DNA of 36,728 bases from an uncultured Actinomycetota bacterium (GCA_964505365.1 CAZDIF010000001.1:6056-42783); one strand, 5' to 3'; positions 2,586 to 33,296 are shown, counted from the stretch's first letter. A program made the numbers and translations. The notes: generated from the sequence alone by a model not told the origin.

Positions 2586-2633
2586 GTGGACCCGGCCGAC
2601 CACGGTCGCCGTCCGTCGACCAAGGGGCTTTCG

Positions 2634-5824: not shown

Positions 5825-6787
5825 GTGACCACGCTGAGCGGGGTGTCCCCCATCTTCGTCACAGGACTCGACCACAGTGGCCGACACATCCTCGCCGGCT
5901 TGCTCGGGTCGCACCCGAACATCGCGATGACGTGTGGCCTCAACGTCTGGCCGCGCTTCGGCGGGGACCTGGCTGACCTGTCCGCACCAGAGGACCTGTC
6001 CCGGTGCATTTCGGTCCTGCGGGACCATCAACTCATCCGGGCGCTGGGCGTCGACCTCGACCTGGTCCGCGAGAACTTCCTCGACGCTGGCGAGCGCACC
6101 TATGCCCGGTTGCTGGCCCTCATCGGGCTGCAGCACGCGCACCGGAGGCACAAGTCCCGGTGGGCGGACACCTCACCAGCGATCGAACATCACGCGAGCG
6201 AGCTCCTCGCCGACTTCCCGGACGCCAGGATCCTGCACGTCGTGCGTGACCCACGCGACCACCTGGCATCCACAAGGGCAGGGACGGGGCACGGGAGGAC
6301 CGCGGGAAGGGACACGGCAAAGTGGCTGCGGTCGGTCCGCGTGGCCCGAGACCTCGCCGCCCGTGATCCCGACCACTACCGCGCCGTGAGGTACGAGGAC
6401 GTGATGAACGACCCCGGGGCCGTTCTCCAGTTCATCTGCAGCTTCATCGCGGAGGAGTACACGCCCTCCATGTTCGCCCTGCAGGGAACGCAGCGTTCCT
6501 GCGTCTGCGGTCTCTGGCCCCCGGAAGCATCAGAGGGGCCGGTCGGCCGGTACCTCGAGAGGCTGACCTCGACCCAGATCGCCGTCATCGAGCGGATGGC
6601 GGCGACCGACATGGCGGCGGCCGGCTACGAGCTCGTGAGCCCTCAGCTCACATCCCTTCGGAATCTGTGGTTCGCCATCGTGAGACTGCCGATGGAGGTC
6701 GCGATGGCACGGGCCTGGTCCTGGGGTGACGCGATGCGTCGCCGCCGAGGAAGCCTCCGGTCTCCTACCCAGAGGGCGCCCGCATGA
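5825..6787 (+). CDS. Sulfotransferase 1 (Sulfotransfer_3-like, PAPS-dependent)
   Basis: 5'-PSB-like loop IFVTGLDHSGRHIL, 3'-PB motif ARILHVVRDPRDHLAS and RYEDV. RBS GAAGGAGG at 5812..5819 lies 5 nt before GTG 5825 (alternative GTG 5810). The first ~250 codons of ORF 5072..6787 overlap the Wzz-like gene out of frame and are rejected. Confidence 0.8.
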   Translation: MTTLSGVSPIFVTGLDHSGRHILAGLLGSHPNIAMTCGLNVWPRFGGDLADLSAPEDLSRCISVLRDHQLIRALGVDLDLVRENFLDAGERTYARLLALIGLQHAHRRHKSRWADTSPAIEHHASELLADFPDARILHVVRDPRDHLASTRAGTGHGRTAGRDTAKWLRSVRVARDLAARDPDHYRAVRYEDVMNDPGAVLQFICSFIAEEYTPSMFALQGTQRSCVCGLWPPEASEGPVGRYLERLTSTQIAVIERMAATDMAAAGYELVSPQLTSLRNLWFAIVRLPMEVAMARAWSWGDAMRRRRGSLRSPTQRAPA

Positions 6788-8223
6788 CCCCCTCGACAGC
6801 GATCAGCCGCCTTCCTGCCCTCGTTCCGCGACCGAAGCTCCGCATGCTGTGGCCGGTACCGGTCGCCGTCGGATCCGGGGTGGTGTTTGGGGGCCTGGTC
6901 GCCGCTGGGCAGTGGCCAGTCGCCGTGACACTGCTCGTGATGGTGCCGGCGGTGACACTGCTCCACCGGGAGCCCCTGGCCGGCGTCGCGGCATGGCTGG
7001 TCCTCGCGCCGCTGGTCGTGAACACGGACCAGATGTCGATCCGCATGGTGTTCTGGATCGTGCACCGGCTCCTCCCCGTCGCGCTGCTGCTCGCCCTCGT
7101 CCTCCGACCCCTCGTCATCGAGAACACCCGACCCTTGAAGCGGCTCCGATGGGTGGACGCCCTGGCCGCCGGATACGTCGTGGCGGGCCTGATCTCCGTC
7201 GCCTACACGTCCCCAAGCGCCGGAGACGCGACGATCCACCTGTACGACAATGTCGCCATGCCGGTGTGCCTGTATGCGGCCGTGCGTCTCCTCGGACCCG
7301 ACCGGGACGAGATCCGTCGATGGCTGTTCCCGGCGATCGCCATTGCGCTTGCCATCCAGGTCGCGGTTGGTCTGGTCTCGTGGGGGATGCCGAGCCTTCT
7401 GCCGTCGGCCTGGGAGTCCATCGAGCCTCGGGCTCGGACCACCGGAACCGTGAGGTCGGTGTCCGTGTACGGGGTGACGGTCATCACCGGGGCACTCGTC
7501 CTCCTCGACGAGGCTGCCGCGGCGACGCGCTCCCTCCGGCGGGTCCTGGCGTACCTCGGTTTCACGGTCGCGGTCGGGATGGTGTTCCTCACGTTCTCAC
7601 GAGGCAGTTGGCTCGCAGGCCTGCTGGCAATCGGAGCGGCACTGCTGGTTCACCGGCGCATCGTCGGGCGCCTGGCCCTGATCGTCGGGATGGTCGCGAT
7701 CCTCGTGGTCTCCTCAGGCTTGCTGACCTCCCAGTTCCAGTTCGCATCCGAACGGCTCGACTCGGAACAGGCCGACGAGTCGGCACTGGCTCGACTTCCC
7801 GTCGCCCTTGCGTCGATGCGCATGCTCCAGGAACGACCGCTCACCGGGTTCGGGTACGAGAACTTCGACCGTTTCGACCGCCCATACCAGGGTCCCGTGA
7901 TGGGCTACTACCCCGAGAAGGACCACGCGTCACACAACCTCTACCTCACCCTGGCCGCGGAGCAGGGCGTCATCGGCCTCGTCCTGTTCGTGGCGCCCGT
8001 CGTGTATTGGTGGTCGCGGACTCGTGCGGCCCGTCGACGCGGCCCCCTTGACCCTGGCAACTCACGACTGACCTTGCTGCTCTGGTTGGCGCTGCTCGCC
8101 CACGTGGCCGTGAACAACTTCAGCAACATGCGGGTGTCGTTCGGCCTGGGGTTGTGGTGGCTCACGCTCGGGCTCGTCGCGTCGCTCGTGGCGTCCCACG
8201 AGGATGAGGCGGTGCGCTCGTGA
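6784..8223 (+). CDS. Wzy-type polysaccharide polymerase / O-antigen ligase-family membrane protein
   Basis: A polytopic hydrophobic protein of 479 aa. It has a central Wzy_C-like block (FLTFSRGSWLAGLLAIGAALL) and a large loop containing HNLYLTLAAEQG. Its start forms an ATGA overlap with the upstream stop. Confidence 0.8.
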   Translation: MTPSTAISRLPALVPRPKLRMLWPVPVAVGSGVVFGGLVAAGQWPVAVTLLVMVPAVTLLHREPLAGVAAWLVLAPLVVNTDQMSIRMVFWIVHRLLPVALLLALVLRPLVIENTRPLKRLRWVDALAAGYVVAGLISVAYTSPSAGDATIHLYDNVAMPVCLYAAVRLLGPDRDEIRRWLFPAIAIALAIQVAVGLVSWGMPSLLPSAWESIEPRARTTGTVRSVSVYGVTVITGALVLLDEAAAATRSLRRVLAYLGFTVAVGMVFLTFSRGSWLAGLLAIGAALLVHRRIVGRLALIVGMVAILVVSSGLLTSQFQFASERLDSEQADESALARLPVALASMRMLQERPLTGFGYENFDRFDRPYQGPVMGYYPEKDHASHNLYLTLAAEQGVIGLVLFVAPVVYWWSRTRAARRRGPLDPGNSRLTLLLWLALLAHVAVNNFSNMRVSFGLGLWWLTLGLVASLVASHEDEAVRS

Positions 8224-9452
8224 CCAGCCGTGGAGATCTGGCGAACACCCTCGACATGCTCTACGTCATCGGCACGTACCCGATCCTGACCACCACGTTC
8301 ATCGACCGGGAAATCGCATCGATGCGCAAGGACGGGGCTGCTGTCGGTGTCGTGTCCCTCCGAAGACCGACAGGCAAGCTGTCCCACGACCAGCGCGCCA
8401 TGGCGGACGTCACCCACTACCTGTTGCCCGTTCGGACCCATGATGTGCTGCGCGCACACGCGGCGATCATCGCACGGCATCCACTCAGGTACGTGGCACT
8501 GGTGGTGGGGCTGGTGCGACGCCCGCACCCGACTCTGCGTGCCCGCGCACGAACGCTCCTCCACATCACCGAAGGGGTCTGCGTGGCGCATGTGGTGCAC
8601 ACGCGCCTTCGGACGCAGCGACTCCACGCCCACTTTCTCGACCGGGCCGCGTTGGTGGCCCTGGTGGTGGGGCGACTGCTCGACATCCCGTACAGCGTTA
8701 CGGGCCACGCCAGCGACATCTTCGTCGACCCGGTACTCCTTGCGGAGAAGATCAACGCAGCCACGTCGGTCACGACCTGCACCGAGTACAACGCCCGTCA
8801 TCTCGCATCCCTCGCCGACGCTCGCGACCATGTCAAGATCCGTTGCATCCACCATGGGATCGACGCGGAGCGCTACCGACCGGGAACGGAGCGGAAGGGG
8901 AGACCGCCGATCGTTCTGTCCGTCGGACAACTCCGTGAAAAGAAGGGCCACATCCACCTGCTCCAGGCCTGTCGACAGCTGATGGACCGCGGGCAGGACT
9001 TCACCTGCGAGATCGTGGGCGACGGTCCGCTCCGCCACCACCTCGAGTCGTTGGCGTCGGATCTGGGCCTCGAGGGAACCGTGGTGTTCCGAGGAGCGCT
9101 GCCGTGGGACGAGGTGCGAGCGCGCTACCGGACTGCCTCCGTCTTCGCGCTGGCCTCCGTCACGGCCCGGGATGGCGACCGGGACGGGATCCCCAACGTC
9201 ATCCTGGAGGCCATGGCGATGGAGCTGCCGGTCGTGTCGACCGACCACTCGGGCATCCCGGAGGCTGTCCTGCACGGGCACACGGGACTGCTCGTCCCTC
9301 CCGGGGACTCCGTGGCGCTCGCGGACGCCATCGGTGCCCTGCTGGCGGATCCGGACTGGGCACGGGCACTCGGACGGGGCGGTCGGCACCGCGTCGTCGA
9401 GGCCTTCGACGTGGAGAGCAACGTCCGGCGACTTCGCGAGGTGATGGCGTGA
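8220..9452 (+). CDS. GT4-family glycosyltransferase (WcaL-like)
   Basis: GT-B C-terminal signature: GIPNVILEAMAMELPVVSTDHSGIPEAV..G.TGLLVPPGD (EX7E region). The start is either the GTGA overlap at 8220 or ATG 8256 (MLYVIGTYP). Confidence 0.85.
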   Translation: MTSRGDLANTLDMLYVIGTYPILTTTFIDREIASMRKDGAAVGVVSLRRPTGKLSHDQRAMADVTHYLLPVRTHDVLRAHAAIIARHPLRYVALVVGLVRRPHPTLRARARTLLHITEGVCVAHVVHTRLRTQRLHAHFLDRAALVALVVGRLLDIPYSVTGHASDIFVDPVLLAEKINAATSVTTCTEYNARHLASLADARDHVKIRCIHHGIDAERYRPGTERKGRPPIVLSVGQLREKKGHIHLLQACRQLMDRGQDFTCEIVGDGPLRHHLESLASDLGLEGTVVFRGALPWDEVRARYRTASVFALASVTARDGDRDGIPNVILEAMAMELPVVSTDHSGIPEAVLHGHTGLLVPPGDSVALADAIGALLADPDWARALGRGGRHRVVEAFDVESNVRRLREVMA

Positions 9453-10504
9453 CGACATCCGTAGAGACAGCCGACGTGGCCAGGACGCTGGCAGGTCGCG
9501 CCCTGTTCGTCGTGTGGGGTCCCCCGAGCTACGGCCCGCGCAGCCGGGCCTTCGCGCGTGAGCTGGAGATCGACGTCCATTTCGTGACGTCGTTCAGCCG
9601 ACGCGGGCTGGTCACCGCGCCACTGCGCTATGCCATCCAGGCCGTCCGGACGCTGTGGCTGCTGCAACGTCACCGGCCGGATGTGGTCTTCGTCCAGAGT
9701 CCGCCCAGCCTCGCGGTGCTGTGTGTCCACCTCTACGCGGTCGTGTCGGGTGCCGCCTATGTGGTCGACGCGCACAGCGGGGCGTTCGACCTGCCCTACT
9801 GGCGACGTCCACGGTGGCTCCACCGCCGGCTCCTCGGGCATGCCGTGACGACCGTGGTCACCAACGGGCACATGGCCGACGTCGTCCACGACGACGGGGG
9901 CCGATCCATGGTTGTTCGGGACGTCCCGACCGGGTTTCCAATCGGGGCACGGCCGGCCCTACCAGACGCGTTCAACGTCGCCGTGGTCAGCAGCTTCGCC
10001 CCGGACGAGCCCCTCGAGGCCATCGTGTCGGCCGCCGCCGACACGCCCGATGTCGTGTACCACGTCACCGGTCCGAACCACCGGGCACCGGGTCGCGTGC
10101 CGTCCCCCTTGCCGCCCAACGTCCACCTCACGGGCTTCCTACCCGACGAGGACTACTACGGCCTGTTGTCGTCAGTCGATGCCGTGATGTGCCTGACCAC
10201 CCGCGACCACACGATGCAACGGGGTGCCTGCGAGGCGCTCTCACTGGGAACGCCGCTCATCACCTCTCAGTGGGACGTCCTGACGGAGTACTTCGAACTG
10301 GGCACCGTCCACGTGGACGCGACAACGGAGGACATCCTCCGCGGCATCCGAGAGATGAGAACGGAACACGCGCGGCACCGCAAGGGCATGCAGGAACTTC
10401 GTGACCAGCGGCAGGAGGAGTGGCGGCGGGCCCGTGACGGGCTGGTGGAGCAACTGTCCCCGCTCATCGCGTCGAGGGCAGCAGTCGCCACACAGGAGGG
10501 GTGA
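9449..10504 (+). CDS. GT-B fold glycosyltransferase (divergent, family uncertain)
   Basis: The real start is GTG 9449 (GTGA overlap with the upstream stop). Two Rossmann-like halves are visible: ALFVVWGPPSYGPRS at the N-terminus and VHLTGFLPDEDYYGLLSSVDAVMCLT...GACEALSLGTPLITS at the C-terminus. The upstream 115 codons of ORF 9104..10504 are out-of-frame overlap. Confidence 0.6.
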   Translation: MTTSVETADVARTLAGRALFVVWGPPSYGPRSRAFARELEIDVHFVTSFSRRGLVTAPLRYAIQAVRTLWLLQRHRPDVVFVQSPPSLAVLCVHLYAVVSGAAYVVDAHSGAFDLPYWRRPRWLHRRLLGHAVTTVVTNGHMADVVHDDGGRSMVVRDVPTGFPIGARPALPDAFNVAVVSSFAPDEPLEAIVSAAADTPDVVYHVTGPNHRAPGRVPSPLPPNVHLTGFLPDEDYYGLLSSVDAVMCLTTRDHTMQRGACEALSLGTPLITSQWDVLTEYFELGTVHVDATTEDILRGIREMRTEHARHRKGMQELRDQRQEEWRRARDGLVEQLSPLIASRAAVATQEG

Positions 10505-10509
10505 GTCCA

Positions 10510-11808
10510 ATGTCCAGGATCAGCGTGTTCGGCCTCGGCTATGTGGGCGCTGTGACGGCCGCCGTGCTCGCCGAAGACGGGCACACCGTCATCGGCGTCG
10601 ACGCGAACCCCAGCAAGGTCGCGGCCGTCGCCGGCGGTCGAGCCCCGGTGGTGGAACTCGGACTCGACGACCTGATCCTGCGCGGTGTGCGCTCTGGGCA
10701 GCTTCGAGCGACGGCCGACGTCGATGAGGCCGTGTCGGGCTCCGACATCTCCATGATCTGTGTCGGTACGCCGAGTCTCGAGAGTGGGGGTCTCGACCTG
10801 TCGCAGGTCGAGAAGGTCTGTGGCGAGATCGGCCACCGTCTCCGTGACAAGGCCGCACCGCACACCGTCGTCGTCCGGAGCACCCTCCTGCCAGGAAGTA
10901 CCGACCAGGTCGTCATCCCAGCGCTCGAGGGTACGTCTGGCCGCATCGTCGGCCAGGGCGTGCTCGTCGGTGTGAACCCCGAATTTCTCCGCGAAGGTTC
11001 GTCACTGAAGGACTTCTACGATCCGCCGTTCACGATCGTCGGGGCGGACGACGACCAGACGGCGCGGTCCATCGCGGAACTGTACGAGGGGGCGCCGTCG
11101 CCGCCCCTCGTGGTCCCGGTCCGTGTCGCGGAGATGCTCAAGTACGCCTGCAACGCCTTCCACGCCCTCAAGATTGTGTTCGCCAACGAGATCGACAGCA
11201 TCTGCCTGCGGCAGGGAATCGACAGCACCCAGATGATGGAGATCTTCTGCCGCGACACCAAGCTGAACGTCTCCCCCCGGTACCTGCGGCCCGGCTTCGC
11301 CTTCGGGGGCTCATGCCTTCCGAAGGACCTGCGGGCGCTCGTGCACCATGCGCGCCACCTGGACGTGGACACCCCGGTCCTGGGCGCCATCCTGCGCAGC
11401 AACCGGGACCACGTCTCCCGTGCGCTCCAGGAGGTCATGGCCACCGGCGAACGACGGATCGGACTGGTCGGCCTCAGTTTCAAGCCCGGTACGGACGACC
11501 TGCGCGAGAGTCCCCTCGTGGAACTGGCCGAGCGACTCATCGGCAAGGGCTACGACCTCCGGGTTCACGACCCCCACGTCGCCGTGGCAAACCTGGTGGG
11601 CGCGAACCGGCGCTACATCGAACGGGAGATCCCCCACATCGCCACACTCATGGTCGACACCCCCGCCGAACTCCTCCGCGACTCGGAGGTCATCGTGCTC
11701 GGCCACGACTCGCCGGACGCGAGAGCGGTGACCCGCCAGCTCTCGGCGCACCATCGGGTCATCGACCTGGTCCGCAGCGGTGCACACGCACAGGTCCCGG
11801 TGGGGTGA
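10510..11808 (+). CDS. Nucleotide-sugar 6-dehydrogenase, GDP-mannose 6-dehydrogenase (AlgD)-like
   Basis: Motifs ISVFGLGYVG, NPEFLREGSSLKDFYDPPFTIVG and the catalytic Cys motif PGFAFGGSCLPKD. These match my recollection of AlgD better than Ugd (GGxCFxKD). AGGAGG at 10493..10498. The start is ATG 10510 or GTG 10501. Confidence 0.8.
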   Translation: MSRISVFGLGYVGAVTAAVLAEDGHTVIGVDANPSKVAAVAGGRAPVVELGLDDLILRGVRSGQLRATADVDEAVSGSDISMICVGTPSLESGGLDLSQVEKVCGEIGHRLRDKAAPHTVVVRSTLLPGSTDQVVIPALEGTSGRIVGQGVLVGVNPEFLREGSSLKDFYDPPFTIVGADDDQTARSIAELYEGAPSPPLVVPVRVAEMLKYACNAFHALKIVFANEIDSICLRQGIDSTQMMEIFCRDTKLNVSPRYLRPGFAFGGSCLPKDLRALVHHARHLDVDTPVLGAILRSNRDHVSRALQEVMATGERRIGLVGLSFKPGTDDLRESPLVELAERLIGKGYDLRVHDPHVAVANLVGANRRYIEREIPHIATLMVDTPAELLRDSEVIVLGHDSPDARAVTRQLSAHHRVIDLVRSGAHAQVPVG

Positions 11809-11815
11809 GAACCGA

Positions 11816-12841
11816 TCAGACCCGCGCTCCGCTGGGAAGTCGCCGGTACATCTCGTAACCCGCCCGGGCCAGTCGCAGGCGAACCGGCGCATGGGTCCGC
11901 GTGTGCCGCCCGTAGCACACCAGGTCGCCGCCGAACTTCGCCTTGAAGTCCCGGACTCCGTACGCCTCGTCTGGGCGGCCCGCCCCACCGAAGTCGTACA
12001 CCCGGTAGCCCTCTTCCGATGCACGACGCAGGACATCCCACATCAACAACTCGTTCGGAGTGGACCTCGAGTACTGGCGGTCGACTCCCCCATACCACCC
12101 GTACACGGTGTCGCCATGGGCGAGTTCGGCCGACGCGGCGACGATGGTCTCACCGATCCGCGCCAGCACGAAGCGCACCATGCCCCGGGGCACGAGCACC
12201 TCATGGGCAGCACGGAACAGGGACGCGTCGGCCAACGGCACGCGAGCGTTGCGGTACGTCTCCTCCAGGATCCGGTACCACGCGGTGAGGTCCTCCCGGC
12301 TGACGGCATCCTCGACAAGCACCTCACCCTGTCGCAGGCCCCTGCGGATTTGCTTCCGCGTGCTCCGGCTGATCGAGGCGAGCAGGTCGTCCGCCGGCCG
12401 GTCGAGGTCGATGAGGTAGTTCAGGTGATCCTCGTACGTGTAGCCGTTCGCCTCCAGGACGTCTCCGACTGGGCCGGCGTCCACGATGTGGCGCAACTCG
12501 GTCAGCAGCACGGCATGGTGCACGCTCGCCTCGTGGGTCCGCAGGAGCCGGTCCACGGCGTTGATCCCGTCGGGCCCCGGCACGTGGAGGATGCCACCGT
12601 AGACAATCGAACGGGTCGCGACCCGACGCGCGACATCGGGCCCGACGGCCACCTCGACCGGGACCAGCAGGGCGAGGACCTCCCCCGCGCGCCTCGCCGC
12701 GAGGAGTGATGGTCGGTGCCCTCGAGCCCGGCGGAACGTCTCGAACATCTCTGGGGTCTGGAAGACGTTTCCCCCCGGCGTCGCCGCCACGAACTCCCGC
12801 CACTGGCCGTCAGGCAGCCTCCGAACCACCTCGATGGTCAT
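11816..12841 (-). CDS. FemAB-family / Acetyltransf_6 (GNAT-fold) aminoacyl- or acyl-transferase
   Basis: 341 aa. The C-terminal block GYRVYDFGGAGRPDEAYGVRDFKAKFGG is typical of FemX/FemAB-like transferases found in EPS loci. The start forms an ATGA overlap with the ATP-grasp stop. Confidence 0.7.
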   Translation of the reverse strand: MTIEVVRRLPDGQWREFVAATPGGNVFQTPEMFETFRRARGHRPSLLAARRAGEVLALLVPVEVAVGPDVARRVATRSIVYGGILHVPGPDGINAVDRLLRTHEASVHHAVLLTELRHIVDAGPVGDVLEANGYTYEDHLNYLIDLDRPADDLLASISRSTRKQIRRGLRQGEVLVEDAVSREDLTAWYRILEETYRNARVPLADASLFRAAHEVLVPRGMVRFVLARIGETIVAASAELAHGDTVYGWYGGVDRQYSRSTPNELLMWDVLRRASEEGYRVYDFGGAGRPDEAYGVRDFKAKFGGDLVCYGRHTRTHAPVRLRLARAGYEMYRRLPSGARV

Positions 12842-15597: not shown

Positions 15598-15600
15598 GGC

Positions 15601-16491: not shown

Positions 16492-16498
16492 GGCTGTG

Positions 16499-25452: not shown

Positions 25453-26678
25453 CCGACGCGCCGATCACGCAGCCATCTGCTCGGCCGGGCCATCCCGACG
25501 CCCCGGAAGTGCGAATGTTCCACCCCGGCCTGCCGGAACAGGGCCACCAGTTGCTCGGCGCATCGGCGGGAGCTGAACTCTGCCTCGATGCGACACCGGG
25601 CGGAAGCACCTCGAGCACGCGCCGCGGCGGGGTCGGCCAGCAGCTCGGTGATCGCGGCTGCCAGGGCGGTGGCGTCACCCGGTGGCACCAGCCACCCCTC
25701 GACGCCGTGCCGCACGACCTGGGTGGTGCCGCTCACGGCCGTCGCCACGACCGGCAGTCCGGTGGCCATGGCCTCCAGGAGGGCCACCGACATGCCCTCC
25801 CACAACGAGGGCAGGACGAAGGAATCGCTGGCCGCCAGGATCTCGGGAACGTCGCGCCGGCTGCCGAGCAGGTGCACGCGGTCGCCCAGCCTCAGGTCGC
25901 GGACTCTCGCCTCGATCACACCGCGCAGGCGACCATCCCCGACGAGCGCCACGTGCAGGTCGGGAGCCTGCCCTGCCACGTCGGCGACCGCCTCGAGCAG
26001 CTGGTCGTACCCCTTCTGGGCCTTGAAGGTCCCCACCATCGCCATGAGGTGGTCACCCGGGCCGATGCCCAAGCTGGCACGGAGTCCGTCTCGGTCGACC
26101 ACGGGCGGGAAGCGGTCCACGTCCACCCCGTTGACCACCACCACGATCCGGTCCTCGGCGGCGCCCCCGAGGTGATCGCGCACCGCGTGGGCCGTGTCCT
26201 CCGACACCGCCACGATTCCCGTCACGACGCGAGCGCCCAGGCGCCGCAGCCACCGCTGCGCCGCACGCTTGGGCCGGTACAGCCAACGGTGGGCCGGGAG
26301 GTGTTCGGGGCGCAGCGTGAAGGCGACGTTGCCGATGCGCCACCACACCTGGACCCGGCGAGCAAGGGTGAGGACGAGGAGCTCCCAGGTACCCAGTGCA
26401 GCCGTCAGCACCACCTCGACGTCGTGCGCCTCCAGCAGGCGCACGAGGTCTCGACGCCGCTGCCGCGCCTCGCGAAGGAATGGCACCAGCGCGAGGACGC
26501 TGCGTCGACGGTCCGGCAGCACGTGGACGGGCGTCCCCGCGGCGCGGATCTCGTCGACCAGGGGGCCCGCCCGAAACGTGGCCACGACCACCCGGCATCC
26601 CGTGTCGGGCAACGCGGTCGCCAGTGACCGCACGGTCTCCTGCGCACCGCCGACATCCAGGTCAGCGGTGACCAGCAT
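25449..26678 (-). CDS. GT4-family glycosyltransferase
   Basis: MLVTADLDVGGAQETV at the N-terminus and FVLPSLWEGMSVALLEAMATGLPVVATAVSG...G.EGWLVPPGD (EX7E region). Start candidates are ATG 26678, GTG 26681 and GTG 26702. The rest of ORF 25449..26921 is rejected. Confidence 0.85.
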   Translation of the reverse strand: MLVTADLDVGGAQETVRSLATALPDTGCRVVVATFRAGPLVDEIRAAGTPVHVLPDRRRSVLALVPFLREARQRRRDLVRLLEAHDVEVVLTAALGTWELLVLTLARRVQVWWRIGNVAFTLRPEHLPAHRWLYRPKRAAQRWLRRLGARVVTGIVAVSEDTAHAVRDHLGGAAEDRIVVVVNGVDVDRFPPVVDRDGLRASLGIGPGDHLMAMVGTFKAQKGYDQLLEAVADVAGQAPDLHVALVGDGRLRGVIEARVRDLRLGDRVHLLGSRRDVPEILAASDSFVLPSLWEGMSVALLEAMATGLPVVATAVSGTTQVVRHGVEGWLVPPGDATALAAAITELLADPAAARARGASARCRIEAEFSSRRCAEQLVALFRQAGVEHSHFRGVGMARPSRWLRDRRVG

Positions 26679-26694
26679 CACGGTGGGGGCTGCG

Positions 26695-27549
26695 TCACGC
26701 ACGCTGCACCACCGACGCCCGGTCCTCGGCAACGGTGCTCGCCGGGGTCGGATCCGTACGCTCCACGAGCCACGCGAGGACCTGGTGCTGCAGTTCGTCG
26801 GCGACGACCGCGAGAGGCCGCTCGTTCTCGACCTCGATGAGCGTCCACCCGTGATCCCGAGCCCGTCGTACCGCGACCGCGAGCACCTGCGCGGCGTTGG
26901 AGACATACGCGGCGAGTCCAACGTCGCTCAACGGGCGGTGCCGCCAGGGCCCACGTGCCCGGGCCCGATCGATGCAGGTTGCGACCGCGGATCGGACGAC
27001 GATGGTCAGATCCGGTGGTGGGATGCGGTCGAGGTATCGCACCACCTCCACCGCGTCGGGCCGCTCCCGCTGGGAGGCGTGCAGGGTGGTGGCTCGGTGG
27101 GCGAAGCCGTCGTCGACGACCAGCACGTCGCCTGGACGGGCCAATCGGGCCAGCAGTCCACGTCGTCCCGCCTGGGCGAACCACCACCGCAGGATGTGCC
27201 AACGAAGGGCTACAGGGAGCGGCCGTCCCACCTGTGCGAGGACGACGTGGCGGACCAGTCCGGGTCGTTGGCGCAGGACCCCGAACAGGTGCGCGCAACC
27301 GCCCGCGGTGAACAGGAGCCAGGTCGCTGCGTTGCCCAGCCTCCCCGGCACTCCCAGCACTCGCCCGACGCGCGTGCGGTGCCGGATGCGTTCCGGCCCG
27401 GCCCTCTCCGGGATGGCCGCGTCCACGCCGGACTGTTCGAGGCTGCGCACGAGCTCCCGGCAGAGGCTCGACTTGCCGCTGCCGGGCAGGCCGACGAACT
27501 CGATGACGACCGCCGGCCGCCCGCGGTGTCTCGATCCCTCAGAGCGCAT
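26695..27549 (-). CDS. P-loop NTPase / kinase-like protein of unknown function
   Basis: Walker A VIEFVGLPGSGKSSL and a Walker-B-like VLVVDDGF. No further family signature is recognisable by eye. The start overlaps the upstream stop by 11 nt. Confidence 0.55.
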   Translation of the reverse strand: MRSEGSRHRGRPAVVIEFVGLPGSGKSSLCRELVRSLEQSGVDAAIPERAGPERIRHRTRVGRVLGVPGRLGNAATWLLFTAGGCAHLFGVLRQRPGLVRHVVLAQVGRPLPVALRWHILRWWFAQAGRRGLLARLARPGDVLVVDDGFAHRATTLHASQRERPDAVEVVRYLDRIPPPDLTIVVRSAVATCIDRARARGPWRHRPLSDVGLAAYVSNAAQVLAVAVRRARDHGWTLIEVENERPLAVVADELQHQVLAWLVERTDPTPASTVAEDRASVVQRA

Positions 27550-29110
27550 ACCAGAGCTCCTTCTGGACGGCCAGTCGGACCTCGTGGAGTGGCCCGTCCG
27601 CGGGGAGGGCGTGGACCCGTACGCCCACCGCGTCCGAGGTCGCGGCCACGTCCCGCGCCACCGCGGCCTTCACCTCGAGCACGGTCGGGTCGTGGTCGGG
27701 CTTGCGTTCGGCTGCGACGTGCGGACTGACGTGCAGGACCAGAACTGAGCCCGGCGGCGTGAACCGTCCGTAGACGCCCTCCTCCCAGCGCGCCAGCGCC
27801 CGGAGGAGGCGGCTTGCCGTACCCACTCTCGTGGCGATGCGCGGGCCGTCCAGGATCCGGTGCGCTGCCCGTCCCGTCAGCGGTTCGACGGGGAACCGGT
27901 CAAAGATCACGACACCGCCACGCAGGGCAGTCGCCGCTGCCGCCTGCTGGCGTTGGAAGCGATCGCGAGCGACTGACAGGCAGTGGAACGCGAGTACCGC
28001 GTCGCGAGCCCGGCCCACGAATCGGGACATGGCGTCGGGCACGCGGCCACCGGCCGAGAGGCGGCGATGAGCCCGGCGAAGGGCTCGGAAGACGAGATGG
28101 GTCCAGATGGTCCTCCGTGTCGGATCCTTGCTGCCGAGGTACACGACGCCGACATCGAGCTTCCAGCCCAGCCAGGAGGCGAGATCCGCACAGATGGTGG
28201 ACTTGCCGGCACCGTCGGCGCCGATCACCGCGAACGTGGTGCCTCCGGTGGCGGGTGTCATCCTCCGGCGTCCGTGACCTCGCCTGAGGCGCTCGCGCCG
28301 TGCCCAGGTCACGCGCAGGGATTCCACGAGGACACCGACGCGTGACCGGCGGGCGTGGGACCGGAGCGACTTGCGCAGCCGAGCTCGGAGCCGAAGGAGG
28401 CGAATGCCGGACCGGGGATCCTCTGTCGCGATCTGCAGGAACGTGGCGAGCAGGTCCTCGGGGACCTTGGTGGTCCCGCTGCGAACGACGTCACGGACGG
28501 CTTCGAGCGAGGTCTGGCCCAGCAGCCAGGCCATCTCGGAACGTGTGGTCGCCGGTATGCCGAGGGTGCGGATCCCGAGGACGTCCTTGACCACGTCGCG
28601 AGCCCGGTACTTGAGCAACGCGCGCATCGCCAGGACCGTCAGTTCGACGTCGGGTGACGGCACCGCGACGCCGGACAGTCGACGCACCGACTCGAGGAAC
28701 TGGGACTCCATGGGCAGGCGGTAGTTCTTGACGTGGCGCTCGCCGAGGATCAGTCGGTAGTGCACGTGCAGGTGGAACAGACGACCCGTGTCCGCGTCCA
28801 TGCCGAGGTAGTGCTCGATCCCCGGATGCGCCCCTCCCGGTGACGGGTCGAGTCGCCGGACGCCATGCGTGGCGACGAGTGACCGGAATCGCTCCGCGTG
28901 CTGCGGGTCGACGAGCAGGTCCAGGTCCGTGTGGCCGGCAAGCGCTGCCGTGAGATGCGAGTTGCTCTTCCACGCGCAGTAGCGCACCCCGGCACGGTGG
29001 AACGCATCGATGAGCACGCGCAGGCTGGCGAGGGGCGACATGTCATCTGTCGTGCCCTCCACCGTCTCGTGCAGGGCCGATGAGGCCACAACCTGCTTCA
29101 GCACGGACAC
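27539..29110 (-). CDS. Fusion protein: N-terminal NTP_transf_5-like (pol-beta fold) nucleotidyltransferase domain plus C-terminal dTMP-kinase-like P-loop domain
   Basis: The N-terminal half has YCAWKSNSHLTAALAGHTDLDLLVD and LFHLHVHYRL, a pattern typical of the uncharacterised nucleotidyltransferase family. The C-terminal half has FAVIGADGAGKSTI, VVIFDRFPVEP and PPGSVLVLHVSPHVAAERKPDHD, which is collinear with 14094..14876. The start is GTG 29110 or ATG 29041. Confidence 0.6.
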   Translation of the reverse strand: MSVLKQVVASSALHETVEGTTDDMSPLASLRVLIDAFHRAGVRYCAWKSNSHLTAALAGHTDLDLLVDPQHAERFRSLVATHGVRRLDPSPGGAHPGIEHYLGMDADTGRLFHLHVHYRLILGERHVKNYRLPMESQFLESVRRLSGVAVPSPDVELTVLAMRALLKYRARDVVKDVLGIRTLGIPATTRSEMAWLLGQTSLEAVRDVVRSGTTKVPEDLLATFLQIATEDPRSGIRLLRLRARLRKSLRSHARRSRVGVLVESLRVTWARRERLRRGHGRRRMTPATGGTTFAVIGADGAGKSTICADLASWLGWKLDVGVVYLGSKDPTRRTIWTHLVFRALRRAHRRLSAGGRVPDAMSRFVGRARDAVLAFHCLSVARDRFQRQQAAAATALRGGVVIFDRFPVEPLTGRAAHRILDGPRIATRVGTASRLLRALARWEEGVYGRFTPPGSVLVLHVSPHVAAERKPDHDPTVLEVKAAVARDVAATSDAVGVRVHALPADGPLHEVRLAVQKELWYAL

Positions 29111-29582
29111 TCCCGACCTCCGACCGGATGCCGGCTTCCTCGCGAGCCGGCACGCGCCCCTCGCCTCACGTCCACTCCTCGCACCGGTTCGCCGCCCCAG
29201 GGACGCGGTGCTCCCTACACGCTACGAACGGCGTAGCGGCTCCGCAGCACGTGGCGTCGTACTCCCACGTACGACGAATGCATGAGTCGATCCAGCGTGC
29301 GGCTCTCCAGACGTCGTGCGTCACGAGGCTCACGCACGTACAGACGGCGTACGCCAGCTACGAACCGCGGGCCTACGACGCCACGCCGCGGCCCGTACCG
29401 TGGGACTGTCGTCAGCCTGGGGCAGCCGGGTGACGCGGACCGAAAGGCGCGGGGCGGATGCAGTCGCAGGCAGCCGGCGCGTGATCCGACCGGTCCCCCA
29501 CGTCCCGCGCGCAGCTCGGATCGTTCGGGCTGCGGCATCCTCCCTCCGCCGGCCTGACCTCGATCACCGCACCGTCGATCGC
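29111..29582. promoter_or_regulatory. About 470 bp divergent intergenic/leader region between the 17-gene minus operon and the APH-like kinase gene
   Basis: No convincing coding frame; third-position G/C bias is poor until about 29380. The region contains several TCGTAG-type hexamers on the minus strand and the inverted repeat cGCTACG-aacgg-CGTAGCg at 29220..29238. Confidence 0.5.
29217..29229 (-). promoter_or_regulatory. Conserved 13-nt leader motif GTTCGTAGCGTGT (ops-like), copy 1
   Basis: The plus-strand sequence ACACGCTACGAAC is identical to 34975..34987. It lies 106 nt upstream of GTG 29110. The partner box TTCGTCGTA (29278..29270) lies 53 nt further upstream. Confidence 0.45.
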
Positions 29583-30599
29583 GTGCTCCTCCACTACGGG
29601 TTCGAATCGACTGGCCGCACACGCAACGTCGTGACCGGAGCCCGGAGCCGGAACGTGGTGGTCGCCACGTCGATCGGCCCCGTCCTGTTGAAGGAGTACC
29701 GCTCGGACTGGACGCCCGCGCGGGTGGAGCACACCCACTCCATCCTGATGCACCTCGAGACGACCTCCTCGCCCGCCCCACGCGTGATCCGACGCGAGGA
29801 TGGCGGCACGTGGACGCAGGTGAGTGGGGCCACCTACGCCCTGTTCTCCTTTGCCGCGGGGCGGAACCTCTCGATGGACCGTCTTCGACGGAAGGACCGA
29901 CTGCGGGCTGTCGGCGTGGCCGGCCGGGTGCTGGGGCGTCTGCACCGCGATCTTCACGGCTTCGTGCCCGGGGGTGAGCATCACCTCGGCTTCACCTCTC
30001 TCGACGGGCCCGAACGCATCCCGCTCGCGTGGTACGTCGATCGACTGTCCGAGTACGCGGACGCCGCCCTTCCCGGACCACTGGCAGCATTCTCCTCCCG
30101 GGCCGACGAACTGGCCCGTCGCCTGGCCGCACTGGACCGGGACCTGGCATCCGCGGCGCTTCCGCGGGTGGTCATTCACGGTGACTTCGGGCTGCACAAC
30201 CTGCTGTTCGAATCAACCCAGGTCGCGACGCCAGTGGACTTCGAACTTGCACGGATCGAGCACCGACTCACGGATGTACTGATGACGGTCTCTCGGTTCG
30301 GGTCGGGGCATGTCAGCTGGGACCTCCCCGCCATCGAGGCATTCCTCGCCGACTATGTTGCCGAAGCGCCAGCGGTCACCTCGGCGGAGCTCCGCCTGCT
30401 GCCGAGCCTGTGGGTCGTCGATCGACTGCGGTCGGCGATCAGGGCGGTCGACAACGTTCAACACGGTGGCGACGAGCGACATGTGGCTGCCGCGGCGCGC
30501 CGGCTCCGGGAGGCGGACTGGCTGGCGTCCGGTCCCGCACCTGTTCACCACGTGCGGGACGTCCTCGCTTCGCTGTCCTCGGCATCGATGAGTCGATAG
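29583..30599 (+). CDS. APH / choline-kinase / homoserine-kinase-II-family phosphotransferase
   Basis: GPVLLKEY (nucleotide-binding Lys region), the Brenner motif VVIHGDFGLHNLLF and PVDFELA (the DxD-equivalent). The start is uncertain (in-frame GTGs at 29583, 29472 and 29430). The 3' end overlaps the convergent sulfotransferase 5 by 55 nt. Confidence 0.7.
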   Translation: MLLHYGFESTGRTRNVVTGARSRNVVVATSIGPVLLKEYRSDWTPARVEHTHSILMHLETTSSPAPRVIRREDGGTWTQVSGATYALFSFAAGRNLSMDRLRRKDRLRAVGVAGRVLGRLHRDLHGFVPGGEHHLGFTSLDGPERIPLAWYVDRLSEYADAALPGPLAAFSSRADELARRLAALDRDLASAALPRVVIHGDFGLHNLLFESTQVATPVDFELARIEHRLTDVLMTVSRFGSGHVSWDLPAIEAFLADYVAEAPAVTSAELRLLPSLWVVDRLRSAIRAVDNVQHGGDERHVAAAARRLREADWLASGPAPVHHVRDVLASLSSASMSR

Positions 30600-31552
30600 G
30601 CGGGCAAGGGCTCACCGCGACGCCGTACGAGCCGGTCGCGGGTCTGCCACGCACGTGCGCGCACATACTCGACGGGCATGCTCCCGAACGTGAACTGCAG
30701 CTTGCTCGGCAGGGCCAGTCGGGGTCGTGTCCGTTCGTACCCGAGCTCCTGCATCTCCCTGCCCGCCATCCACTCGACGAAGCTGACCTGCGCCTCCGTG
30801 AGGACGTCACGGAAGCGGCCGATCGAATCGGTCGAGATCTCACCCGGTCGGCGCGGTTCGTAGGAGCTGTTGCCGCCCTGCTCGCGGAACCCGGGGGCTC
30901 CGCTCATCGACAGCATCTCCGGCGTGTACTCCTCGCCGAGGAAGGCACAGACCGCCTGCAGACACGTCTCCGGCTGGCGAGCGAGCGTCTCGTAGGTGAT
31001 GACCCGGTACTGCTCGGGATGCCGTTCCGAGAGCCGTCGGGCGAGGTGCACGGACCGCAGCCACTCCGCCGTCCCGGCCCCCACACCCCCGCGCCGTTGC
31101 CAGCGCGTGGCGGAGGATGCGAACCGGTCACGTGGATCTCGGACCATGTGGAGGATCCGCGCATCCGGGTACGCGGAGAGGATCTCGGCCGCGTGCCGTT
31201 CGGTCCCGAGGGACTTGTCCCCCCATCGCGGCTTGTCGAGCTTGGCCGCATACTGCTGCTCGATCAGCTCGAACAGACGGGCGTACGTGCGTTCGCCCCC
31301 TGCCAGGAAGTCCACGCGCAGTTTCTCGAAATCCGTGCCCAGGACGGTCAGTCGCTTGTAGCGACGCATGACCGAGAGGCAGTGGTCCAGGGCGACGGTG
31401 TCGGCGAGGTCGCCGTAGCGGCCGTAGAAGTACCGCCACAGGTTCGTGCGCCGCGTCATCGCAAGTCTGGGGTGGGATGCCAGGAGCGAGAAGATCAAGC
31501 TCGTCCCACTCCGCTCGAGCCCAGCGATGAAGACCGGTCCAGGCGCATTCAT
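30545..31552 (-). CDS. Sulfotransferase 5 (Sulfotransfer_3-like)
   Basis: PVFIAGLERSGTSLI, KPRWGDKS, ARILHMVRDPRDRFAS, ITYETLARQP and VCAFLGEEYTPEML. Confidence 0.85.
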   Translation of the reverse strand: MNAPGPVFIAGLERSGTSLIFSLLASHPRLAMTRRTNLWRYFYGRYGDLADTVALDHCLSVMRRYKRLTVLGTDFEKLRVDFLAGGERTYARLFELIEQQYAAKLDKPRWGDKSLGTERHAAEILSAYPDARILHMVRDPRDRFASSATRWQRRGGVGAGTAEWLRSVHLARRLSERHPEQYRVITYETLARQPETCLQAVCAFLGEEYTPEMLSMSGAPGFREQGGNSSYEPRRPGEISTDSIGRFRDVLTEAQVSFVEWMAGREMQELGYERTRPRLALPSKLQFTFGSMPVEYVRARAWQTRDRLVRRRGEPLPAYRLIDAEDSEARTSRTW

Positions 31553-32277
31553 GCGGTGCCTCGTCTGTCGTCGACTTCCCTGCCGCGGCTGTCCGTGACC
31601 ACCGACGACACGAAGCGCTGCCGACGCATCTCCGCGCGCATCGCGGGGTGCAGCTGCTCGCCCAGGAACTCACAGAGGTCCGTCAGGACTCCGATGGGAT
31701 CCGTCTGCAACTCGTGATCGCGCACGATCCGGTACCGGCCTCCGTGGCGCCGCAGATTGGCTCGCGCAAGCCACTCCGAGTGGGCCCACCGCGCGGCCTC
31801 CCGGGCAAGACGTCCGCGCCGCCACGGTGGCCAGGCGCCCACCGACGGATCGTGGTGCGGGATCCTGAGCAGATGGATGATGCGGGCGTCCGGGTACGCC
31901 GCGAACACCTCGTCGGCAAAACCCACGATGGAGCCGAGCTGCTCACCCCACCGTCTGGCACCGACCCGCTCGGCATGGTGCCGGTGCATCAGTCCGAACA
32001 GCCGACCGTAGGTCGGCGTGGTGAGTGCGAGCTCCTGTCGGATCCGATCGACGTCCGGCCGCAGCTGCTGCACGTGCGGATCCCGAAGCATCACGTCGAG
32101 GCACCTCGTGAGGTTGGCACGATCATCGAGGTCACCGAACCGGCCGTGGTACGTCGGCCACAGGTAGGTACGGCGAGTCATGCAGATCTCGGGATGAGCT
32201 TCCAGTGCCTGCCGGAGTTCCGTCTTCCCGGAACCTGCCAGTCCGCCGATCAGGATCGGGTTGTCCAGGCCGTTCAT
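31549..32277 (-). CDS. Sulfotransferase 6, a short paralogue with a degenerate 3'-PB motif
   Basis: PILIGGLAGSGKTEL and ARRWGEQL are present. However, ARIIHLLRIPHHDPS replaces the (V/M)VRDPRD motif, and the protein stops after 242 aa, whereas paralogues 1, 2, 4, 5 and 7 are 319-363 aa. Confidence 0.7.
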   Translation of the reverse strand: MNGLDNPILIGGLAGSGKTELRQALEAHPEICMTRRTYLWPTYHGRFGDLDDRANLTRCLDVMLRDPHVQQLRPDVDRIRQELALTTPTYGRLFGLMHRHHAERVGARRWGEQLGSIVGFADEVFAAYPDARIIHLLRIPHHDPSVGAWPPWRRGRLAREAARWAHSEWLARANLRRHGGRYRIVRDHELQTDPIGVLTDLCEFLGEQLHPAMRAEMRRQRFVSSVVTDSRGREVDDRRGTA

Positions 32278-33296
32278 GAGCCGGCCCCGCTACGCAGCAC
32301 CATGCGCTCGCCGGGTCGGCGGTGGACAACGGCCGGCAGTTGCTGCTGCAGCTGCTCGACGGTGCGCCACGTGAGCATCCGCATGGCTTGATCCGGCCAG
32401 TCGCGCAGGATGAACCGCACACGGTCCCGACCGGACATCGGCACGGGCTCCATGGCGTACCCGAACCGTCTCATCCGATGACGCAGCTGCTGCTGCATGA
32501 ACGCGAGCTCTGCCCCTGGCGCCGTCCGATCCCGCCCGATGAACTCGGTGGACAGGAGGCGACCGTCCTCGGCGGCTTCCGTGAGCCGCTCCCGATGCCT
32601 GGGGGCACCCGCCATTTCAAGCATCGCCGGCTCGAACGGCTCTCCCACGAAGTCACAGACGTCCTGGACGATTCGCGCCGGATCCTGTACCAGGTCCTCG
32701 AAACGAACGATGAGGTACCGGCCCGGGTAGCGCCGGCGGTGACGTTCTGCCAGCGCCGTCGAGTACCGCCATCGGGCGACCGCACCCCCGGCTCGGCCGC
32801 GACCCGTCGGCCACCGGGCCAGCGATGCTTCGTAGCGGTCACGTGGATCCCGCACCATGTGGATGATTCGGACGTCGGGATGCGCCGCCACCAGCCGATC
32901 CGCATACCGCTCGATCAGTCCGGTCTGCGCCCCCCATCTCGGCTTGCCGTGGCGCTGCGCGAAGTGGATGAGGAACAGGGCGAAGAGCCGTGCGTAGTCC
33001 CGTTCCCCCGTGACGAACTCACGTCGGATCCGGTCCTCGTCCGGCGAGAGGAACCGCACGTGCTTGTAGCTGAGCATCGCCGACAGGCAACGCTCGAAGT
33101 TCTCGTCGTGGCTGAGGTCGCCGTACTGCCCGTGGAAGTAGGTCCACATGTTCGACCCGACGGCGGGGATGGCGATCCGTGAGTGCGACGTGAGGAATGC
33201 ACTCATCGTCGTCTTGCCGGACCGGTCGAGCCCACCGACGTAGATGGGGGCGGGATGCACCTCCAGCATGGCTTCCGCCTCGACCTCGGTCCTCAT
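32274..33296 (-). CDS. Sulfotransferase 7 (Sulfotransfer_3-like)
   Basis: The start is ATG 33296 (ATGA overlap with the wzx stop). Motifs PIYVGGLDRSGKTTM, KPRWGAQT, VRIIHMVRDPRDRYEA, VRFEDLVQDP and VCDFVGEPFEPAML. The upstream 285 codons of ORF 32274..34151 are rejected. Confidence 0.85.
   Translation of the reverse strand: MRTEVEAEAMLEVHPAPIYVGGLDRSGKTTMSAFLTSHSRIAIPAVGSNMWTYFHGQYGDLSHDENFERCLSAMLSYKHVRFLSPDEDRIRREFVTGERDYARLFALFLIHFAQRHGKPRWGAQTGLIERYADRLVAAHPDVRIIHMVRDPRDRYEASLARWPTGRGRAGGAVARWRYSTALAERHRRRYPGRYLIVRFEDLVQDPARIVQDVCDFVGEPFEPAMLEMAGAPRHRERLTEAAEDGRLLSTEFIGRDRTAPGAELAFMQQQLRHRMRRFGYAMEPVPMSGRDRVRFILRDWPDQAMRMLTWRTVEQLQQQLPAVVHRRPGERMVLRSGAGS

Follow-up and report, generated by a model that had tools for sequence, protein, structure and literature searches.

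In a 36.7-kb stretch of DNA (36,728 nucleotides, referred to below as the window) from an uncultured Actinomycetota bacterium (GCA_964505365.1, CAZDIF010000001.1:6056-42783), seven sulfotransferase (ST) genes lie within a complete polysaccharide locus of the Wzx/Wzy type, which also encodes a priming glycosyltransferase, GT4 glycosyltransferases (GTs), a Wzz-like protein, Wzy and Wzx, as assigned by Pfam and NCBIfam profiles. An initial annotation had placed one of the seven, ST1, by itself and the others in two consecutive triplets, ST4-ST3-ST2 and ST7-ST6-ST5. All seven open reading frames (ORFs) are indeed present where it had put them, and the 1 + 3 + 3 layout is real. Because the high GC content of the window (65-74%) yields many spurious ORFs, the real genes, approximately 32, were picked among them by means of codon-position GC.

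The seven sulfotransferase genes and their coupling

Family membership was tested against PF13469 (Sulfotransfer_3), which has a gathering score of 27 bits, and all seven proteins pass it (ST1 80.5, ST2 124.8, ST3 55.3, ST4 94.8, ST5 99.7, ST6 56.3 and ST7 88.4 bits). PF00685 (Sulfotransfer_1) gives only secondary, weaker matches (21-47 bits), and within NCBIfam none of the STs rises above any cut-off, the sole match being to NoeE (24.5 bits vs 500). ST1 (5825-6787, +; 320 aa) is preceded by an AAGGAGG Shine-Dalgarno sequence and begins with GTG. In the first triplet, ST2 (22492-23583, -; 363 aa) carries intact motifs (GADRSGTTL, RWGDKSLHSEH and VRDPRDRYAS), ST3 (23573-24496, -; 307 aa) is of a distinct subfamily (GHxKSG, DE and RNPFDPIS) and ST4 (24493-25452, -; 319 aa) presents RSGKT, RWGDQS..E and RDPRD. 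The real start of ST3 is most likely the GTG at 24496, which forms a GTGA overlap with the ST4 stop and gives a protein of 307 aa, the length of its orthologues. The second triplet opens with ST7 (32274-33296, -; 340 aa; RSGKT, RWGAQT..E and RDPRD), followed by ST6 (31549-32277, -), a short sulfotransferase-like ORF of 242 aa, and by ST5 (30545-31552, -; 335 aa), whose motifs are intact. None of the STs contains a transmembrane-like segment, the maximum KD19 hydropathy being 1.50.

Protein identity among the six STs other than ST3 is 36-48%. ST3 shares 27-31% with the others (longer alignments) and falls in an outgroup clade of the tree described below, in agreement with its earlier assignment to a different subfamily. 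At the DNA level the copies resemble one another in patches of at most about 65-77% identity, and the only 100% match is the overlap between the ST3 and ST4 ORFs; the copies are thus diverged and free of long repeats, as had been noted before. Recent duplication or gene conversion among them is ruled out by this patchy identity.

The ST genes interlock with their neighbours. ATGA overlaps are found at the Wzx/ST7, ST7/ST6, ST6/ST5, GT4/ST4 and ST1/Wzy junctions, a GTGA overlap at ST4/ST3, and 11-nt overlaps at ST3/ST2 and between ST2 and the following gene, which encodes an N-acetyltransferase with hexapeptide repeats (LbH), so that the genes of the triplets overlap by 4 or 11 nt. The gene coordinates of a related metagenome contig (L001) imply the same 11-nt overlaps. 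Judged by these junctions, the STs are translationally coupled to a flippase, a polymerase and a glycosyltransferase.

Orthologous groups, synteny and motif integrity

More than 1500 homologues of ST2 occur in a large protein collection, almost all of them from metagenomes or metagenome-assembled genomes (MAGs), with 75% identity for the best match other than itself. A survey of GTDB, with one genome for each species, yielded 70 loci, none above 60% identity, and a search with an ST2-type profile among 1.84 billion cluster representatives (50% identity) gave 725 matches at E<=1e-30 and 13,759 at E<=1e-10. The carriers include several groups of Chloroflexota (Anaerolineales, Caldilineales, Promineifilaceae, Limnocylindria, Herpetosiphonaceae and Roseiflexaceae), Acidimicrobiia and other Actinomycetota, and one Planctomycetaceae MAG, the closest relatives being the JGI metagenome contig L001, the Logan contig L076 and Acidimicrobiia MAGs. 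A hidden Markov model built from the seven window proteins detects at least three ST ORFs, each set within at most 21 kb, in 53 of the 75 related loci, and seven in one Limnocylindria locus; multi-ST clusters are therefore the rule for this family. Several proteins present two to five separate stretches matching the ST2 profile (P0358, of 674 aa, P0363, of 1298 aa, P0359, P0438 and P0503), which suggests natural ST-ST fusions, and such fusions would argue that the paralogues act together on one substrate. In the literature on sulfotransferases in polysaccharide loci of Anaerolineae or Acidimicrobiia, no description of this cluster type was found.

In a neighbour-joining tree of 237 ST domains, computed without bootstrap support, ST2, ST3, ST4, ST5 and ST7 each belong to an exclusive clade, and every one of these clades contains both Chloroflexota and Actinomycetota. 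The ST2 clade (51 members, three phyla) is sister to the ST5 clade (48 members), the ST3 clade (44 members) represents the outgroup subfamily, and the ST7 and ST4 clades comprise 19 and 13 members, respectively. ST6 likewise falls in a separate orthogroup (36 members, sister to ST7), which is found in Chloroflexota and Actinomycetota MAGs. Orthologues of the first five elsewhere are 53-67% identical to the window proteins (up to 63% for ST3, 56-67% for ST7, and 50-53% for the ST4 orthologues of L004, L008, L021 and L023), whereas paralogues within the window do not exceed 48%.

The same blocks of genes recur. The order ST7-(ST6-type)-ST5, usually followed by Wzy, is present in at least 20 loci from both phyla, and ST4-ST3-ST2 in the Acidimicrobiia and Actinomycetes MAGs L008, L021 and L023. 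A wider core, made of ST3, ST2, a GT4, an APH-family kinase, a P-loop protein and a 523-aa protein termed unk523, plus GT4-GT4-UGDH and Wzy, occurs in 35-51 of the 75 loci, and in 41-49 of them the STs are accompanied by the same GT4s, Wzy and UGDH. Since the orthologues are closer than the paralogues and the triplets recur, the ST set was inherited as blocks and not expanded in this locus. Of the earlier description as an old, maintained expansion, the age and the maintenance are strongly supported by the orthologues in other phyla, but not an expansion in this place.

Each clade can be recognised by its own motifs, given here in the order 5'-phosphosulfate-binding loop (PSB), middle segment and 3'-phosphate-binding motif (3'-PB). 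These are GpDRSGTtL, MVRRTN with RWGDKSLHTEh, and RDPRDRyAS in the ST2 clade; GlERsGTSL, RWGDKSLnTER and RDPRDRYAS in the ST5 clade; GlDRcGKT, RWGxQtGLiEr and RDPRDRYeA in the ST7 clade; rsgkt, rwGdQtExiEx and RDPRDryeA in the ST4 clade; and GHxKSG, xaDExD and RNPfDPIS in the ST3 clade. The window copies of ST2, ST3, ST4, ST5 and ST7 agree with the motifs of their own clade and have the PSB and the 3'-PB intact. The basic residue of the PSB loop is kept as RSG in ST2, ST4, ST5 and ST7 and as KSG in ST3; the corresponding stretch reads HSGRH in ST1 and AGSGKT in ST6. A 3'-phosphate motif (RDPRD...S or RNPxDPIS) is present in all except ST6, where LRIPHHDPS is found. The architecture formerly ascribed to six of the copies is thus shared in terms of homology but not of motif integrity: all five of its literal motifs are matched by ST5, but only four by ST2 and by ST4, three by ST7, one by ST1 and none by ST6.

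The two exceptions have deteriorated in different ways. In the ST6 clade (GlxxSGKT), the PSB position is not Arg in 28 of the 31 other sequences covering the loop. The window ST6 has further losses, namely the change of RDPR to RIPH, approximately 65 C-terminal residues and a Glu that is conserved in every clade of the main family. An assembly or frameshift artefact is an unlikely origin of its truncation, as an ATGA overlap joins its stop to the start of ST5 and the short form also exists in L076, whose ST6 orthologue (231 aa, 50% identity) has the same degenerate 3'-phosphate motif and the same truncation. ST1 departs from residues that are invariant in the ST5 clade (RSGTS to HSGRH, MTRRTN to MTCGLN and RWGDKS to RWADTS) and a 7-aa deletion has removed GGNSSYG, while RDPRD and the conserved Glu are retained. 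No orthologue of ST1 above 46% identity was found among 5.8 billion proteins, and its nearest relative by distance is the ST5 of the window. The idea that ST1 represents an orthogroup of its own, with its own motifs, was rejected, its best matches (46% and 45%) being ordinary ST5-type proteins with intact motifs; ST1 is an orphan ST5 derivative that evolves fast.

On these losses, ST1 and ST6 are probably catalytically impaired, each of them being in decay or kept for a non-catalytic role. Both are intact, coupled ORFs with a coding-type GC content at third codon positions, for which reason they are called impaired and not pseudogenes; this integrity speaks against impairment, and both may still be active with altered chemistry. 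The seven sulfotransferases of the initial annotation thus remain seven genes but not seven working enzymes, and those that look competent number about five (ST2, ST3, ST4, ST5 and ST7).

The degenerate copies raise the alternative that most STs are redundant or relict, with one to three sulfates added per repeat unit, the other copies acting as pseudoenzymes or back-ups and the number of ST genes saying little about sulfate density. The loss of clade-invariant residues in ST1 and ST6, their accelerated divergence, seen as low identity to L076 (45% and 50%, respectively, vs 67% for ST7 and 70% for ST5), and the scarcity of the PSB Arg throughout most of the ST6 clade fit this alternative, as does the case of synechan, where deletion of one of two STs had little phenotype (PMC8205485). 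However, ST2, ST3, ST4, ST5 and ST7 keep their clade-specific motifs through hundreds of sequences from different phyla, which is the mark of distinct functions under selection and not of redundancy, and general redundancy is considered unlikely.

In its left arm, the window is most closely related to L076, in which the order is BacTransf-GFO-Wzz-Wzx-ST7-ST6-ST5-Wzy-GT4-GT4. ST1 lies just upstream of Wzy, the slot taken in L076 by an ST5-type gene (only 45% identical to ST1), while the Wzx-ST7-ST6-ST5 group of the window is inverted and located approximately 24 kb away from this slot. From this arrangement we infer that a rearrangement left ST1 behind as an additional copy derived from ST5.

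Fold and acceptor

An AlphaFold2 model of ST2 (pLDDT 82, pTM 0.81), the only copy whose fold was tested, shows the sulfotransferase alpha/beta fold and ends in a long helix (residues 312-342). A fold search with this model gave 90 matches in the PDB at E<=1e-3, of which the top 50 are all sulfotransferases or enzymes with the ST fold. The best relatives, by fold as well as by profile, are the tick and human tyrosylprotein sulfotransferases (TPSTs) and the ST domains of the polyketide synthases (PKSs) OLS and CurM (TM 0.5-0.68, 18-23% identity, profile E 4e-13 to 8e-08), followed by cytosolic SULTs and the mycobacterial Stf1 and Stf9; for ST3, only OLS and CurM are matched. Membership of the STs in the superfamily of sulfotransferases that use 3'-phosphoadenosine 5'-phosphosulfate (PAPS) is well supported by these comparisons. 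With TPST1/2 and the OLS and CurM domains (PDB 5wrj, 3ap1, 8w5z, 4gox and 4gbm) the window STs have in common an RSGTT-like PSB loop, a K-containing strand and an RD-x-R 3'-PB region. In contrast, the long C-terminal helix is particular to the window family, and those enzymes operate in a peptide or polyketide context, whereas the window STs belong to polysaccharide assembly. As these nearest structures are TPSTs and PKS ST domains and not carbohydrate STs, the acceptor can be read from genomic context only.

The catalytic Glu of TPST2 is E99, within GEETR, approximately 21 residues past the PSB Arg. At this position ST2, ST4, ST5 and ST6 have RR(T), ST7 has VG and ST1 has CG, and DE is found only in the ST3 subfamily. 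The conserved Glu that follows WGD(K/Q) is a candidate catalytic base.

The kinship with TPSTs brings up the possibility that some or all of the STs act on an acceptor other than a carbohydrate (a peptide, a lipid, or Tyr residues of the Ig/NHL/TSP3-repeat proteins that flank the locus), the polysaccharide itself not being sulfated. Apart from TPST1/2 and the tick TPST being the closest structures and sequences, this explanation could draw on the Asp-Glu of the ST3 subfamily and on the homologues of the flanking Ig/NHL protein, present in 36 of the 75 related loci and in one of them (L004) inside the cluster itself. Nevertheless, sequence identity with TPSTs reaches only 18-21%, Arg-Arg stands in the main family in place of the TPST catalytic Glu, and the STs are coupled to Wzx, Wzy and a GT4; across the phyla, they co-vary with glycosyltransferases. 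Nothing resembling a gene for a precursor peptide was noticed, though substrate genes were not searched for systematically, and PF13469 includes NodH, a carbohydrate ST (PMC11625862). This possibility is given little credit, less than redundancy among the copies.

The kinship with OLS and CurM, whose ST domains rank high in both the fold and the sequence comparisons, raises yet another possible role, in which sulfate would be transient and serve as a leaving group for elimination or substitution on a sugar (for example, for installing an amino, phosphonate or acyl group), as in those domains or in LGS1. The locus does encode tailoring enzymes that could take part, these being FemAB-like and ATP-grasp-like proteins, a methyltransferase, a phosphoenolpyruvate (PEP) mutase module and kinases. 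However, such a role is hard to square with five distinct conserved STs, most of the related loci have the STs but not the tailoring module, and neither a thioesterase-like nor an eliminase partner was seen; of all the explanations considered, it is the least probable. A carbohydrate acceptor remains the preferred one, and it is supported by the coupling of the STs, via overlaps, to Wzx, Wzy, a GT4 and the LbH acetyltransferase.

Sulfate supply, neighbouring genes and the proposed pathway

The absence of CysDN/Sat reported before is borne out: no window gene matches the ATP-sulfurylase or CysD/CysN families, and the gene map leaves no space for them. The initial annotation overlooked, nonetheless, a P-loop protein of 216 aa resembling kinases of adenosine 5'-phosphosulfate (APS), encoded three genes downstream of ST2 (20186-20836, -). 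It matches PF01583 over the full profile (84.3 bits vs 21.1), has its P-loop (GRSGAGKST) intact and has as its best PDB match 2gks (E 8e-30), in the kinase part of a bifunctional SAT/APS kinase from Aquifex. Relatives are located in L004 (4124-4750), L015 (10958-11584), L051, L065 and L066 and at the C-terminus of P0002, where the domain is fused to an ST2-type enzyme. Such genes adjoin ST clusters in several phyla, and in L004 and L005 they overlap the stop of the unk523 homologue. The window protein was aligned with the P0002 fusion and with five orthologous sequences, which represent seven related loci, and each segment was read where it was covered. All the aligned proteins keep the P-loop and share a 3-residue deletion that drops the 'GD' of LDGDxxR, giving LD---VVPxLxK; they have ERTSExK for GFSxEDR and VSA for ISP, and an Arg/Lys-rich segment replaces the KGLYKKA...FTG lid. 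By these features they form a conserved, divergent subfamily tied to ST clusters, and the window protein is a candidate for PAPS supply whose catalytic competence is uncertain.

The protein unk523 (27539-29110, -) was considered as a non-canonical PAPS synthase, an idea that found no support, as its P-loop domain matches thymidylate and deoxynucleoside kinases and nothing in it matches a sulfurylase. It is a fusion of a nucleotidyltransferase-like part (invariant G..TDxD) and a thymidylate-kinase-like part (GxDGxGKST, DRFP) with a model pLDDT of 89, and its homologues, of which there are at least 566, often bear the annotation 'thymidylate kinase'. Next to it lie a 284-aa P-loop protein (26695-27549, -), which is a conserved partner of ST clusters, and, inverted relative to both, an APH-family kinase (about 29430-30599, +); this trio adjoins STs in 35-51 of the 75 related loci. 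Sequence searches of the PDB with unk523 and with a P-loop protein (P-loop2) were empty.

The genes for polysaccharide assembly occupy both strands. On the plus strand lie a priming phosphoglycosyl transferase (2586-3464; PF02397, 166 bits), a GFO/MocA oxidoreductase (3467-4684) with UDP-GlcNAc 3-dehydrogenase as its best NCBIfam match, under the cut-off, and a Wzz-like chain-length protein of the polysaccharide co-polymerase (PCP) type (4675-5760, start approximate), a weak call (GNVR, E 1e-3) whose position is kept in L026, L059, L066 and L076. After ST1 come a Wzy-type polymerase of the O-antigen ligase family (6784-8223; PF04932, 76 bits), two GT4s (8220-9452 and about 9449-10504), a pair kept in 45 of the 75 related loci, and a nucleotide-sugar (6-)dehydrogenase (10501-11808). 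On the minus strand, ST2 is directly followed by the LbH N-acetyltransferase (21927-22502) and then by a DegT-family sugar aminotransferase (20833-21930), an order also found in L001 and L004. Beyond the APS-kinase-like gene are a NodB-family polysaccharide deacetylase (18882-20189; PF01522, 59.6 bits) and a GT4 (17482-18882, start approximate). Another GT4 (25449-26702, start approximate), directly upstream of ST4-ST3-ST2, is adjacent to STs in 49 of the 75 loci, and a Wzx-type flippase (33293-34888; PF01943 and PF13440) heads the Wzx-ST7-ST6-ST5 operon. FemAB-like and ATP-grasp-like proteins are also encoded in the locus.

Approximately 18 consecutive minus-strand genes (11816-29110) have overlapping or near-abutting stop and start codons, with ATGA, GTGA or 11-nt overlaps at the junctions checked, and the whole region looks like a single operon of great length with translational coupling. 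Its central part, from the deacetylase to unk523 and including ST2-ST4 (about 18000-28000), has a GC content of 0.71-0.74, against 0.65-0.69 in the flanks, which could reflect a mosaic origin of the locus.

The GFO/MocA, dehydrogenase, DegT and LbH genes resemble those of the WbpA/B/E/D route, which leads to a 2,3-diacetamido-2,3-dideoxy-hexuronic acid; if the likeness is right, the repeat unit would probably contain this sugar. The locus also holds a phosphonate module (14842-17485, -, with 11816-14876, -), common to the window and L076 and missing from most related loci. It comprises a PEP mutase with its ten-residue signature and a D-2-hydroxyacid dehydrogenase, a combination that suggests a VlpB-like branch from phosphonopyruvate to phosphonolactate (PMC8942020); no phosphonopyruvate decarboxylase was seen. 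Its companions are a methyltransferase, a thymidylate-kinase-like P-loop protein, an ATP-grasp-like protein of 419 aa and a FemAB-like protein, and the module suggests a phosphonate decoration of the glycan. Finally, large secreted-type proteins with He_PIG/Big/PKD/NHL domains, one of them with a weak match to TSP3 repeats, flank the locus at 2-2350 (-) and 35169-36728 (-). The homologue of the first that lies in the L004 cluster spans 12973-16002. Both could be glycan-anchoring or glycosylated surface proteins.

From this gene content, and with the genomic context as basis, we infer a carbohydrate acceptor, regiospecificity, sulfation before flipping and the source of PAPS, and the product of the locus is probably, with some reserve, a heavily sulfated heteropolysaccharide. 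On the inner side of the membrane, the priming phosphoglycosyl transferase and the four GT4s would assemble on undecaprenyl phosphate a unit of approximately five sugars, and the soluble cytoplasmic ST2, ST3, ST4, ST5 and ST7 would each transfer sulfate from PAPS to its own position of the lipid-linked unit. Wzx would then flip the sulfated unit and Wzy polymerise it, with the Wzz-like protein setting the chain length. PAPS would be formed from APS, itself the product of a sulfurylase encoded elsewhere, and the APS-kinase-like protein of the locus may contribute. Regiospecific multi-site sulfation is a plausible reading of the ST set and the most economical one.

Several observations weigh against this pathway. 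No member of this ST family has a characterised acceptor, and the nearest solved relatives, in sequence and in fold, are protein-tyrosine STs and PKS ST domains, with no carbohydrate ST, including the heparan-sulfate type, in the top 50 fold matches of ST2. An invariant Arg-Arg replaces the TPST catalytic Glu in the main family. The APS-kinase-like protein is devoid of canonical APS-kinase motifs and stays under every NCBIfam cut-off (82.1 vs 138.7 bits for TIGR00455), and the window is devoid of a sulfurylase. In addition, all relatives from the GTDB scan are MAGs or metagenome assemblies, and hence no chemistry is known for any carrier organism.

Among known systems, the closest in design is the xss cluster for synechan of Synechocystis sp. 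PCC 6803, a Wzx/Wzy locus with two STs and a sulfated product (PMC8205485). Both are Wzx/Wzy/PCP-dependent loci in which GTs are clustered with PAPS-type STs, and in both the STs would decorate the repeat unit. The xss-type gene set (Wzx, Wzy, PCP, priming GT, GTs and STs) is present in the window, the PCP call being weak. No Pfam match to a histidine kinase, response regulator or STAND protein, as in regulators of the XssS/XssR/XssQ type, was found among the approximately 32 window genes. Synechan has two STs to eight GTs and two sulfates per eight sugars, whereas the window has seven STs (about five intact) to five glycosyl or phosphoglycosyl transferases. Unlike xss, the window type belongs to uncultured Actinomycetota and Chloroflexota, is known from genes alone, and has a dedicated APS-kinase-like gene and conserved ST triplets.

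The wps-1 cluster of Actinoplanes missouriensis, reported in 2026, is likewise an actinobacterial Wzx/Wzy locus with STs, a methyltransferase and a kinase-like protein, and a sulfated polysaccharide was predicted for it without chemical proof (PMC13390465). By its description it is set apart from the window by having only two STs, from other InterPro families (Gal/GlcNAc/GalNAc-ST-like and heparan-sulfate-ST-like), with neither ST triplets nor an APS-kinase-like gene. NodH, reported as a PF13469 protein (PMC11625862), NoeE and KpsS are also bacterial PAPS-dependent carbohydrate STs, but they are single enzymes acting on lipo-oligosaccharides or KPS, in contrast to the sets of five to seven of the window type. 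In a study of Shark Bay mats, no PF13469 gene was recorded in the Chloroflexi MAGs (PMC9723792), and bacterial sulfated polysaccharides are still described as essentially a cyanobacterial trait (PMC8205485, PMC13390465). What sets the window type apart from these systems is a much higher ratio of STs to GTs, together with ST blocks conserved in both phyla, an atypical partner resembling APS kinases and degenerate copies of STs.

A bolder proposal, advanced tentatively and doubtful as it stands, is that the locus represents a conserved hypersulfation system common to Chloroflexota and Actinomycetota, with at least five position-specific STs, a non-catalytic ST6-type subunit and a dedicated, divergent APS-kinase-like protein, which would produce a glycan with a charge density like that of heparin, of approximately one sulfate per sugar. 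Some of this sulfate might be N-linked, added after the NodB deacetylase according to an NDST-like logic. The extracellular polymeric substances (EPS) of granular sludge are chemically sulfated and resemble glycosaminoglycans, and the STs responsible have not been found (PMC10483923). As the carriers include filamentous lineages of sludge and biofilms (Promineifilaceae, Anaerolineales and Microthrixaceae), the hypersulfation cluster could be the missing genetic basis of these polymers.

The lineages that carry this widespread cluster type, typically with three to seven STs, abound in sludge, soil, groundwater and mats. Its atypical APS-kinase-like partner and the degenerate copies of the ST6 type pose two separate mechanistic puzzles. 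If the proposed pathway is true, heavy sulfation of polysaccharides would extend to two more phyla, approximately five orthologous ST families, presumably differing in regiospecificity, would become available for glyco-engineering, and metagenomic marker genes would be gained for producers of sulfated EPS.

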